Assembly (NCBI GenBank): GCA_964016885.1
Contig: OZ024742.1
Coordinates: forward strand, 314,402,001 to 314,466,000
Direction: 5' to 3'
DNA: 64,000 nt
Source of the DNA: Eledone cirrhosa
Taxonomy: Eukaryota
Of the stretch, positions 4,831 to 12,910 are shown piece by piece. Position 1 is the first letter of the stretch. Every line of letters starts with the position of its first letter. The notes under the pieces are model-generated. The model searched no databases and was not told where the DNA came from. It saw only the letters and a list, made by a program, of their open reading frames with translations. A program made the translations under genes and the position numbers.

Positions 4831-7800
4831 CCCCACACATATATATGCATACATGCATATATGCATACATACATGCCTATATGTGTATCCTTGTATGTTT
4901 ATATGTAATTGTGTATGTATGGGTATGGCTCTGCCAAGTTTTAGTTATAACATTTTTTAGCGTGATAATTGAAAAACTGTGTTTTACTTTTTCCTGTGCT
5001 TTAGTATTTTATATATATTATTATATTATAATTTTCTGAGATAGGAATTCATTTTAGTTCGATGAAATCCAACATATGTTTGACTTATAATTTTGTGTTT
5101 TTTATCTTATTTTTCACTCTCTCTTATTGAACATCAACTCAAACACATGCAAATTTAATGTATTATATAGTGTTTCGAATTTTAAAGACTAAGCCCTTTT
5201 CGGGGAGATCAGTCACGCAGCGGAGAATGATTTTTTCTACAACTAAAAGTTTTATAATATATAACGTCGAACTAGAACTAAAAGCAATCGATACAGACAA
5301 GAAGGAGGAAAACGTGCAGCAGTGCGCTGCAAATACAAATATAATATTCAAAAAGATAAAACAGAAAAACATCAAACGAAATAATTTCTCTCTTATCACG
5401 AGGGAGTTTTTGAAACCGAATGATGATGGGTTCATAATAATAAAGTCGTGGTTTCGATTCCCTGACTGAGTAGTGCATTGTGTTCTTGAGAAAAGCACAT
5501 CATCACTTTTCATCACTTTAAGATGTTTCATTTCCTTTTTTCTGAAATTGAGTAATATTTGATTTAGCTGAAAATGAGCAACTGTAGGTTAGCACTGCGA
5601 CACCCGACTGACTTCGAGAGCATCGAGGAGTTTTGTACTCTTAATCACTTAATGCTTATGAAACAGGCATATTATTCTGGTTGTGTCCAAACGACCGAGA
5701 CAAGCATGGAAAGACAGGCGGAAAATGTTCATTCTAGATCTCCTGTTATACAGAACGCAAATTAAATTGTTAGCAAAATGAACATTACAAACGTAAAAAT
5801 TAAGTTTTCAAGATAGGGTACACTGCTATTAAAATCTAGTGGAGAATGAACTTTCAAAAGTATCTAAAACAGCATACATTCAGTGCATAAGAAGCCTCAA
5901 CAAGATGTAATAAGTAAATATCAAGCCTCAACAATATGTAATAAGTAAATATTGTTTTACGTTTCTTTTTCTCATGCTTGTATGAACTATATGACTGCAA
6001 CTCGGTTTCGAGTGAGGGCATCGCTTGATACTTAAGCATGACCATCACTGACGAGTGGTGTTCTAGTCCTGCTAAGGACTGGCTTAAGGCCAGCAATGCT
6101 ATGCATCGCAGAAAATGTCACAGATCAAGCGATCGTTTGCTTGAATCTTTTTAAGTGACGAAAGGCTTTGCACAGAGCCAATGCCATTCTCTGAACATCG
6201 GATGCAAACTAAGACGCAGGTTCTGTATCAGAGTGACTTCTCCTAGATAGATGTCTTAATGAAGACTAGGAGTCTCTCGCTACGCAAAAAAGAAAACTTT
6301 CTTGGATGGTCGTTGACTCTCCTGAGTTCCTTTGATGGGTTATGTTTTCCAATCCGTTCCTTTGATGGGTTATGTTTTCCAATCCGTAAGATGTCAAAAT
6401 TCCTCCTTCTCACCAAGCAAGCCTGGTTAGGTTTGCCGGTTTAGTTGCCGACGGCCCGACCATGTACAGGGTTACATGTTACCAGTAGCACTGAAGAGTG
6501 ACATGACATAATATATATACATATTTTTTTTCCTGAAAGTGTGGTTATACCCAATAAAGAAATAGTCCCCAATATGTAATCATAGAGGTAAATATACTAT
6601 ATTGTATAAAATACATGGCAAACTGATGTATATATTTGTAAGTAATCAATCAGAGTTTCCTGAAGCAAGGTTGACTTTCTGAACGCAGCCGATGAACGAG
6701 AAGAAATCAATTTGCCTCAGGAAACTCTGAGTACAGGGGAATGTATACACCGGATTGCCATGCATTATATACTTTGCTTTTCATTTTTACGGGTAGGCGT
6801 CGACAAAATAAAACACAAGCGATGCACTGGGATACCTGCTGGCTCTGTGCCAAAAGTAGAAACAATTATATAGAGTATACACAAACACACACACACACAT
6901 ATATATATATATATATATATATATATACATATGGCAACTAATTGTGTTAAAGTAACAGAACTAATCATGAAGTAACACTACATAATTATATATATATATA
7001 TATATATATATATATATATATATATATATATATATATATATATATATATATATATATATATATACACACATATATATATATATATATATATATACACACA
7101 CATATTTATATATATATATATATATATATATATATATGAAATATAAGAATCAAAGAACTGTTCAAAACATTATTGTGCTTACAGCTGTTTCCTCCAAACC
7201 GAGGTTTGGATTCTTCGGAGCAATTTATTAATGCATGGACAGTTATATGACCTCCTTTTCAGCCGAGAGACATACCAATACATATTCAAACATTGATACA
7301 TATTCAAACATTGTGGGTCAACATTCATTACAAAATTTAGAGTGGCAGTACACACTTCGAGATTACATTTATATTAATAGGTACAATCAAAAATCAAAGA
7401 TATAGGTTAAAGTACAACATGAAGATAAGTGGTTATATAGTGCAAATGTTATATGTGTGGCACGCATGTGCGTCTTGTTTATATAGTGTGGCAGAGAGAT
7501 ATGTGTGGTAGAGGCACTTAGGTAGGTAAATAAGAGTGTTAGGTTGGTAGATCTGGTGGCAAAGTCTTTATATGATTGATGTAGTCTGTGTGTGGAGAAA
7601 TATTATAAGCATTAAAGATAGTGCAAGCATTAAAAGAGTTATAAGTATTGGAGATGCACAACGCAGGGATGTCAAGTAATTCATGTACTTCGGCATTTTC
7701 ATGGTCAAGGGAGTGTATATTTCGATTATATGCCTTTCACATAATCCACGACAATCCAGTTAGAGATCGTAGTCTGGTGTTCTTTAGTTCGATACAGGAG

Positions 7801-8665
7801 GTTGTTACGTTTCGAGAGACGCCATTGAATACCGGAAGTGTGTGTGTGGCTAAGGGGAGTTAATGCATGCGGGGAGGTAACTCTGGGGTTTCTATATCCA
7901 GCCATTAAAATGTGTCCCAATATGGACCCTAAATTCTATGGTGAGGTGCACCTTCCAAGAGAGACTTTTAAAGCATAAAGTGTACTAACTATAGAGTAGT
8001 TTAACTAAATTATGCTGAAGGTGATCATATTATTATTAAGGTGGATTAACCCATCTTAAGGTGCTACAAATGGAAATTATAGATGATGAGCGAGGATTCT
8101 AAATTAATGATCTCCGTGGTTGTAGTCTGCTCATATGACCAGGCGCGGTGATTGCAGGATTGCTTCAGGACCCAATGATCTCTGGTAAGATCTGGGTCAT
8201 CGCTTGCTACATTGGATGTCGAAAGATAATCGTCCCCAGGCAGGCCAAAGGTCAATCCGCAGTCCTCGCGACCCCTCTCTGACCGTCAGATCATCCATAT
8301 ACGTACAACCCGCACGGCAGTTGCATTGCATTCACTCACTGCGCTCAGCAGCCCGGTCCTACTGGTCAACAGCGCTACTCGATTAAATCATTTTACATCT
8401 GTCTAAGGAAGGTGTTTCCTCAGCCCAATACCATCCAACCGATCAATTCATGCTCAAATTACCCTTAGAGCGGTGTAGTGCCGTCCAGGTGGGTGGATGT
8501 TGTCACACCTGCCGTAGAGGTATAAATGGGTATTTTCCCTGCGAAGGGTTCCAGAGGGATGTCGTTGTTTGTGTTATAAAGGATCAGCTAGTGTTGGGTA
8601 TGTAGTATAGGGTGTGTCTCTGGTGTTTGATGCTAGATGTGGTGTTAGGTTCCAGTCCGACATTG

Positions 8666-11125: not shown

Positions 11126-12910
11126 ATTGGCAATATTATATGTCAGCTCAACGATATGGAGCAGTTAATAGTATTAGTTATACTATTTATGGTTATGTAA
11201 ACACAAAACCTTAAGCAGTTGTAAGTATTTTACACACACCCTAAATAGTGGTAGGCAGTAATGTATTACTACCTTATTACCAGTAAGTTAAGTAGCTCAA
11301 TGTAAAAACATCAGAAGATTTACAGAGCAGTTATATGAAATATAAGAATCAAAGAACTGTTCAAAACATTATTGTGCTTACAGCTGTTTCCTCCAAACCG
11401 AGGTTTGGATTCTTCGGAGCAATTTATTAATGCATGGACAGTTATATGACCTCCTTTTCAGCCGAGAGACATACCAATACATATTCAAACATTGATACAT
11501 ATTCAAACATTGTGGGTCAACATTCATTACAAAATTTAGAGTGGCAGTACACACTTCGAGATTACATTTATATTAATAGGTACAATCAAAAATCAAAGAT
11601 ATAGGTTAAAGTACAACATGAAGATAAGTGGTTATATAGTGCAAATGTTATATGTGTGGCACGCATGTGCGTCTTGTTTATATAGTGTGGCAGAGAGATA
11701 TGTGTGGTAGAGGCACTTAGGTAGGTAAATAAGAGTGTTAGGTTGGTAGATCTGGTGGCAAAGTCTTTATATGATTGATGTAGTCTGTGTGTGGAGAAAT
11801 ATTATAAGCATTAAAGATAGTGCAAGCATTAAAAGAGTTATAAGTATTGGAGATGCACAACGCAGGGATGTCAAGTAATTCATGTACTTCGGCATTTTCA
11901 TGGTCAAGGGAGTGTATATTTCGATTATATGCCTTTCACATAATCCACGACAATCCAGTTAGAGATCGTAGTCTGGTGTTCTTTAGTTCGATACAGGAGG
12001 TTGTTACGTTTCGAGAGACGCCATTGAATACCGGAAGTGTGTGTGTGGCTAAGGGGAGTTAATGCATGCGGGGAGGTAACTCTGGGGTTTCTATATCCAG
12101 CCATTAAAATGTGTCCCAATATGGACCCTAAATTCTATGGTGAGGTGCACCTTCCAAGAGAGACTTTTAAAGCATAAAGTGTACTAACTATAGAGTAGTT
12201 TAACTAAATTATGCTGAAGGTGATCATATTATTATTAAGGTGGATTAACCCATCTTAAGGTGCTACAAATGGAAATTATAGATGATGAGCGAGGATTCTA
12301 AATTAATGATCTCCGTGGTTGTAGTCTGCTCATATGACCAGGCGCGGTGATTGCAGGATTGCTTCAGGACCCAATGATCTCTGGTAAGATCTGGGTCATC
12401 GCTTGCTACATTGGATGTCGAAAGATAATCGTCCCCAGGCAGGCCAAAGGTCAATCCGCAGTCCTCGCGACCCCTCTCTGACCGTCAGATCATCCATATA
12501 CGTACAACCCGCACGGCAGTTGCATTGCATTCACTCACTGCGCTCAGCAGCCCGGTCCTACTGGTCAACAGCGCTACTCGATTAAATCATTTTACATCTG
12601 TCTAAGGAAGGTGTTTCCTCAGCCCAATACCATCCAACCGATCAATTCATGCTCAAATTACCCTTAGAGCGGTGTAGTGCCGTCCAGGTGGGTGGATGTT
12701 GTCACACCTGCCGTAGAGGTATAAATGGGTATTTTCCCTGCGAAGGGTTCCAGAGGGATGTCGTTGTTTGTGTTATAAAGGATCAGCTAGTGTTGGGTAT
12801 GTAGTATAGGGTGTGTCTCTGGTGTTTGATGCTAGATGTGGTGTTAGGTTCCAGTCCGACATTGCTATATATAGGGCTTAAAGTTTTGGAAGGAATGTCT
12901 GAGGCGGTGC

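Follow-up and report, generated by a model that had tools for sequence, protein, structure and literature searches.

The common Penelope structure is a tandem plus an inverted copy. It was tentatively suggested by Cervera and de la Pena (2014; PMC4209133) that in these Penelope-like elements (PLEs) hammerhead ribozymes (HHRs) may cut the precursor RNA, and that reverse transcription of such RNA, once ligated into circles, could proceed beyond one unit and so explain the tandems. The Naiads have no canonical HHR and yet show a partial tandem, an inverted copy and a one-sided tail (PMC8557442), the latter already known in PLEs (PMC8557442, PMC3846280). In the Anolis element Poseidon PAc (Frangieh 2024; PMC11167929) both strands are cleaved and extended, the tail is defined by two internal starts of the reverse transcriptase (RT), and the protein is a predicted dimer; insertion is normal in HHR mutants, the substrate is mainly uncut RNA, and the reads show no ends at the cut. 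Here we analyze a 4.2-kb Penelope-type insertion, designated PLE1, in Eledone cirrhosa: our window is a stretch of 64,000 nt (GCA_964016885.1, OZ024742.1, positions 314,402,001-314,466,000, forward strand), AT-rich and with abundant TA microsatellites, and the analysis covers this 64-kb window plus contigs and restriction-site-associated DNA (RAD) reads of other samples.

PLE1 is a young insertion made of a 1.376-unit minus arm and an inverted 0.92-unit arm, a layout that is the known footprint of PLEs. Arm A, a partial tandem identified by self-comparison (7133..12911, minus strand), runs from 12911 to 7133/7137, where its 3' end lies at start site 1 against (TA)n. Its 3' repeat (7133..8712, minus) holds the last 47 nt of the open reading frame (ORF), the 3' untranslated region (UTR), an HHR and a further 43-47 nt; it is identical to the 5' repeat or pseudo-long terminal repeat (pLTR; 11332..12911, minus), which covers 1532 nt upstream of the cut and extends into the upstream ORF by 47 nt. 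The two repeats lie at an offset of 4199 and show no difference over 1580 nt. Arm B, inverted and 5'-truncated (12911..16783, plus strand), runs from 12911 to 16779/16783, its 3' end lying at start site 2 against (TA)n, and the arms meet head to head at 12911, a single shared base with no TA between them. With unit coordinates counted as +n nt from the predicted hammerhead cut, and ranges denoting overlap with TA, the arms end at +43..47 and +207..211. These measurements bear out the original prediction, which had been drawn from the same DNA and gave minus-strand HHRs 4199 nt apart (in the present analysis 11379-7180), an insertion of 1.38 units and 3' termini ~43 and ~208 nt past the cut.

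A 164-nt tail (11168..11331, minus) separates start site 1 (11332-11336) from start site 2 (11168-11172); in arm A it is internal and leads into the ORF start. Because arm B overshoots the 3' end of arm A by these 164 nt, and arm A is the longer of the two, neither arm is a simple fold-back of the other. The arms differ at 3 of 3709 positions (12977, 14861 and 16219), all three being derived in arm B with respect to PLE2, an older relative in the same window that serves as outgroup. An inverted paralog of both flanks, joined by one TA tract (20475..20744, minus), represents the unoccupied target state; since the flanks match this paralog with its single TA tract, and no TA stands at the junction, PLE1 occupies one target. 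The region 6932-20744 as a whole is a nested series, in which the TA tracts of an older inverted duplication of ~270 nt were hit by the PLE and by three small families (P, G and H, described below), and these tracts act as a repeated landing pad. A joint from 12911 to 8713, seen in all four runs of other samples, was set aside as tandem evidence; it merely restores the ORF at an arbitrary query cut.

The intact ORF of 819 aa (8666..11125, minus) encodes a telomerase-like RT, with YRDD at residue 367, followed by a C-terminal GIY-YIG-type endonuclease, and carries Hydra-clade motifs. It had no match in Pfam or in a PDB sequence search; a Foldseek search of the PDB with its structure model (pLDDT 83.9) ranked TERTs in the first three places (E ~1e-8, TMq ~0.3), by which the RT is predicted to be telomerase-related. 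Relatives numbered 819 among 7994 candidates scored, with 31-41% identity among the matches listed and mollusc names wherever a name was given. Among the aligned relatives, 4 of 41 have a match to the GIY-YIG family PF01541 (best E 1e-5), which the ORF itself lacks; YVG stands at residue 725, and the Y, G, R and E of the endonuclease are invariant in the alignment. Further motifs are RWR at residue 51 (RWK in the majority of the alignment), DKT at 136, CxCX5C at 691, CxxC at 789 and CxH at 817. As to the GxKF/Y motif, no G.KF occurs in the ORF, consistent with its non-conservation in the Hydra clade, and the (TA)n target of PLE1 is likewise that of the Hydra clade. Residues 483-538 and 627-673 are low-confidence asparagine-rich inserts, as in the Adineta Penelopes (PMC3846280).

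On the evidence of ORF motifs, layout and TA target, the 4.2-kb element is assigned to the Hydra clade as an endonuclease-bearing (EN+) PLE. It shares with that clade (Craig et al. 2021; PMC8557442) the single ORF with RT and then C-terminal GIY-YIG, the RW[K/R], DKT, CxCX5C, CxxC and CxH motifs, an HHR near the 3' end, the (TA)n target, and the partial tandem with an inverted 5'-truncated copy and a tail at one end. In contrast to the families described there, which are mostly <3 kb with tails of 30-40 nt and have CTGA in all 26 Hydra rows of File S2, the unit here is 4.2 kb with a 1.5-kb 3' UTR, the tail measures 164 nt and the HHR core reads CCGANGA. The Penelope of Drosophila virilis and the Adineta Penelopes (PMC2377424, PMC3846280) resemble PLE1 in their two tandem copies with the 5' one truncated, their flanking inverted repeats and the tail on one inverted pLTR, whereas these papers discuss a pLTR promoter and self-priming with template jumps. 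With Poseidon PAc (PMC11167929) PLE1 has in common the two RT starts downstream of the HHR that define the tail, the use of both strands and an AT-rich target; the PAc sites, however, lie inside the ORF, whereas both sites here precede the ATG (+254).

To compare start sites across insertions, 17 candidate two-armed structures were chosen by eye from the window self-comparison. Left out of the count of head-to-head pairs were 25870-27242 (direct only), 31493-31628 (TA at the center), and 6604-6772 and 44946-45053 (degenerate or nested). The two arms of a pair have different 3' ends in all 13 pairs counted. Where a family recurs with the same two sites (three PLE insertions, two of family H and two of family M; family G was excluded, its two insertions having just one site in common), each site is used once in 7/7, which has P<=0.008 if the arms chose independently. 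The three PLE insertions belong to different subfamilies and end at homologous sites: PLE2 (38758..44993), ~85% alike in the ORF and arranged head to head, ends at ~+42 and ~+207, its right arm carrying an internal deletion, and PLE3 (37610..38719), another older relative preserved as head-to-head end stubs, ends at ~+185 and ~+44. Both family H insertions end exactly at +227 and +301, and both two-armed family M insertions use the same two 3' sites. In other samples, contigs start at 11168 (X1, X5) and a TA loose end is found at 11332 in one (X7); contig depth and the RAD begin and end tables mirror the assembly, the restriction sites and the divergence of subfamilies, and neither was taken as a measure of copy number or molecule ends. 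A search of sequencing runs with the 4.2-kb unit listed no RNA run.

The two arms of an insertion also share a haplotype (0/208 differences in the second family H insertion, 0/188 in family P, and the 3/3709 of PLE1), which fits one RNA or one donor locus. Together, the different ends of every pair suggest that one RT dimer primes both DNA ends, each from a different site. The Poseidon account, as far as covered here, does not pair its two start sites with the two DNA ends (PMC11167929), and in the literature searched, mostly without subscription papers, we found neither a start site tied to each arm nor a full-length PLE circle. As a separate observation, the long-tail arms of two independent PLE insertions (12911 and 42255) begin in the early ORF, ~0.92 unit from their start, at points no more than 20 nt apart, and the long-tail arms of families H and B stop at 0.94-1.05 units; these are possibly stalls near a protein-bound region after one turn, the number of cases being small.

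The element carries three HHR motifs. Hammerhead 1 (7176..7222, minus; predicted cut after 7180) has a U4C core (CCGAAGA) and a self-complementary helix III, hammerhead 2 (11375..11421, minus) has its predicted cut after 11379, and hammerhead 3 (16530..16576, plus) after 16572, the HHR motif scan giving the same plus-strand cut as the original prediction. A stricter HHR pattern found 12 motifs in the window compared with 0 in each of 300 block-wise shuffles; Rfam gave no HHR match for the 4.2-kb element and weak HH9 matches for family H only. U4C is present in 5/5 aligned PLE copies from three subfamilies, the core being CCGANGA; the base pair at the foot of helix II is variable, and helix I is short. 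Two copies of the PLE HHR are predicted to fold as a double hammerhead, and the folds of single HHRs are unexceptional against shuffles (z -0.9 to -2.4). In vitro, U4C considerably lowers HHR activity (PMC3088659), and minimal PLE HHRs, which are of the double-hammerhead type, cleave weakly.

Several small families lie elsewhere in the window. Family B (3100..4388) has a 595-nt unit and a U3-A8 HHR with a cut after 4308, its arms ending at +243 and +76..80; family F (50066..51441), with a 556-nt unit and a degenerate HHR-like motif, has arms of 0.25 and 2.2 units. The U3-A8 cores of these two were read by eye only, having been missed by the pattern scans; in F, moreover, the pairing of helix I is poor. 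Family G (17828..18853; 521-nt unit, HHR cut after 18009 on the minus strand) ends at +181 and +476, and family H, with a 465-nt unit and canonical HHRs, is represented by H1 (18997..20475; ends +301 and +227) and H2 (31642..32289; ends +227 and +301). Family P (16917-17337) is two-armed, with 0/188 differences between arms, canonical HHRs, ends at +128 and +165 and thus a 37-nt tail of classic size. Family M is present as short stubs of element ends within TA, their 3' ends falling at two fixed sites (35757-35999, 52398-52608, 32623-32781 and 766-891), no HHR being found in the pieces present within the window; family N (62452-62834) is a palindrome whose arms are identical (0/148) apart from ~43 nt by which one side extends further, and no HHR was seen in it. 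An 11-nt local duplication at 20170-20195, in the second H1 unit just upstream of the HHR, is perhaps due to RT slippage.

At least six unrelated families display the two-armed pattern; there is no similarity across families, and none between the small families and the non-coding part of the local PLE. Copies exceeding one unit, as had been claimed for B, F, G and H, were recovered in each (B 1.05 and 1.11; F 2.2; G 1.30; H 1.05 and 2.1 units). A position of the starts just past the cut, in turn, is right for the PLE1 arms and wrong for the second G arm, which ends at +476, 45 nt before the cut. Families B, G, H and P resemble the non-LTR retrozymes (PMC7229834; bioRxiv 10.64898/2026.07.22.740005), non-coding tandem units with type I HHRs that are proposed to be mobilized by PLEs and for which circular RNAs, as stated in the original prediction, are shown in coral, mussel and axolotl (PMC7229834); they differ in their units of 465-595 nt, two-armed insertions and two fixed ends. 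As for tandem units that each carry an HHR, in the manner of retrozymes, H shows a tandem pair of HHRs, each arm of G and B a single HHR, and the F motif is degenerate.

One target, two fixed 3' ends with one per arm, copying through the cut and more than one unit in one arm can be read directly from this locus. The copying through the cut is seen in 19/19 crossings by HHR-bearing arms, none of which shows an indel relative to its sister copies. No arm 5' end in the window lies at the cut (the nearest are at unit positions 11, 20 and 24), nor do any of the 18 sides of the 9 opposite-strand RAD joints among those listed, the only ones considered, which are subject to restriction-site bias and given without joint polarity. 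Since the crossings are free of indels and no arm 5' end is found at the cut, the template RNA was continuous across it. The plain cleaved monomer is thereby excluded, and the original either/or of a circle or an uncleaved multimer stands to that extent; its argument that a cleaved linear monomer could give only tiny cDNAs holds if the RT does not jump between templates and fails if it does. A pentamer common to the arm A 5' end and the cut 3' fragment has 5 occurrences in the unit, and was treated as chance.

Geometry alone cannot separate a circle, an uncut multimer and a precise switch. What we consider the best explanation, with an even chance of being correct, is an uncut end-redundant or multimeric RNA combined with two-site priming and homology-guided switching. 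The enzyme of the element would cut both DNA strands within one TA tract; the RT, probably as a dimer, would prime one cDNA from each DNA end at the two fixed sites; and the template would most likely be an uncut, end-redundant or multimeric transcript and not a ligated circle. The trailing RT would displace a strand, and the two cDNA ends would be joined via 1-nt homology. Copies exceeding the donor transcript would arise by homology-guided switching between terminal repeats, within one RNA or from one RNA to another; such switching would also keep the units alike, and families B, F, G and H would be moved in trans by the same machinery. The mosaic of family B fits such template switching: 7 of the 8 differences between its arms fall within 117 of 617 nt (P=0.0015), a two-haplotype pattern that needs a template switch or later conversion. 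The 7-site block (3578-3694 against 3957-4073; unit positions 244-360) starts one base past the +243 start site.

Several points weigh against an uncut transcript, in addition to the limits of the RAD joints given above. Arm A extends past the entire 3' UTR (1486 nt), to 1532 nt upstream of the cut, so that a simple transcript started in the pLTR would be insufficient and a longer tandem donor, read-through or a switch is needed; a circle needs no extra step here, and a purely linear scheme does. In H1, all passes and both arms share ~10 alleles against H2, and the passes of its right arm differ at 2/571 positions, compared with 28/642 between H1 and H2 (p=2e-6), as expected from one circle. 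The self-complementarity of helix III is retained via different sequences in 7 motif sets, and the HHRs therefore look selected for function; U4C, moreover, sustains viroid infectivity in vivo (PMC3088659). The mosaic of family B could come from later gene conversion, and the evidence from the anole PLE (PMC11167929) concerns another clade and was obtained in vitro on short templates.

Foremost among the alternatives is a covalent circle, for which paired HHRs would release a 4199-nt monomer from a tandem transcript, to be closed by a host ligase, and the two-site RT would roll around the product with strand displacement. It shares HHR cleavage, ligation and more-than-unit reverse transcription with the 2014 model, in which a long helix II, a short helix I, dimer-type HHRs, the U3-A8 variant and opposite-strand HHR pairs also recur (PMC4209133), and to which the present insertion adds the start-site geometry. 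The 19/19 seamless crossings, the passage of arm A through the whole 3' UTR, the homogeneous arms of 2.1-2.2 units in H and F and the conserved dimer-type helix III would all follow from it, and small metazoan retrozymes do form circles, with RtcB ligation in vitro (PMC7229834). Of the arms longer than 0.5 unit, 6/13 stop within 0.12 of a whole turn, a post hoc clustering that is not significant (P=0.07; 5/18 arms of <0.5 unit excluded and four lengths estimated). Against the circle stand the same layout in the HHR-less Naiads (PMC8557442), the anole PLE with its dispensable HHR and its reads, none of which ends at the cut (PMC11167929), the U4C and short helix I of the HHR in the 4.2-kb element, the failure of 8/9 Xenopus retrozyme dimers to be cleaved in vitro (bioRxiv 10.64898/2026.07.22.740005), a family B that was not copied from one molecule, and the empty search for a full-length PLE circle mentioned above. 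We regard this circle as possible but rather unlikely, and reverse transcription around a ligated circle, which had been proposed for the autonomous element as well, is not favored over its alternatives, given the HHR-less Naiads, the anole PLE and U4C.

Polymorphisms shared between tandem units, the check suggested with the original prediction, gave a divided answer. Family H fits one template per insertion and family B contains two haplotypes, whereas for the 4.2-kb element the test is non-discriminating, because 0/1580 is expected with P=0.28 at the rate of differences between arms. Alleles of the three passes in the window that are nearly absent in other runs (e.g., 11532, 12098 and 12314) are possible lineage differences and were not counted as single-molecule evidence. 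For the small families with canonical HHRs, a circle and a multimer appear, by analogy with retrozyme circles (PMC7229834), about equally likely.

The more specific idea of a ribozyme-made 4.2-kb circle held by one RT dimer, whose subunits would prime the two break ends at sites 164 nt apart and roll around it, seems improbable to us. Even fewer grounds exist for cleaved linear monomers with end-to-end jumping, in which the RT would start near the 5' end, run off at the cut and resume, by a jump, at the 3' end of that monomer or of a different one. Such jumping would give more-than-unit copies without ligation and allow two haplotypes in one arm, and the interval that contains the family B switch (unit positions 361 to 595) reaches the cut; R2-type template jumps, however, are often imprecise, and the 0 indels in 19/19 crossings, together with the absence of arm 5' ends at the cut in the window or the RAD joints listed, make this explanation very doubtful. 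Equally hard to sustain is an origin at the DNA level, either through an event that followed the insertion (unequal crossover, a hit on an older copy, or fold-back self-priming, PMC3846280) or through a duplication in the assembly: the 1580-nt repeat is 100% identical, some junctions are palindromic (family M at 52553) and no listed contig bridges the tail and ORF start by a 31-nt rule, but every arm terminates next to TA at a site common to its family, arm B passes the 3' end of the longer arm A by 164 nt, which speaks against a simple fold-back, and six or more unrelated families show the layout.

Other elements were noted in the window. A second, unrelated RT and GIY-YIG element, frameshifted, lies at 52760-55140 and has an HHR-like motif near 54975-55010, its core also being CCGAAGA. 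Another HHR-like motif at 35000-35190, with a U3-A8 core, a long loop II, a palindromic helix III and a cut after 35132, has a partial copy near 607-675 (region 600-680). A 670-nt direct tandem at 25870-27242, two units 93% alike and bounded by (TATG)n, yielded no HHR; the broken RT region around it (23200-25800) is presumably of LINE type. A bacterial promoter scan of the window gave matches at chance level, and is irrelevant to this DNA.

This locus bears on how PLEs build their tandem-plus-inverted insertions and on what their hammerheads do. It offers a young element with an intact ORF together with several non-coding partner families, and the long tail makes the two start sites easy to distinguish. 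The circle for PLEs is an idea in print since 2014, and the geometry here does not single it out; a 4.2-kb circle, should it exist, would be the first one demonstrated in an autonomous PLE as far as the literature searched shows, and a dimer on such a circle would explain the pLTR, inverted arm and one-sided tail of Penelopes in one step. The part most worth following is the rule of one arm per site, which would provide a sharp test, genome-wide and in vitro, of a dimer priming both DNA ends.

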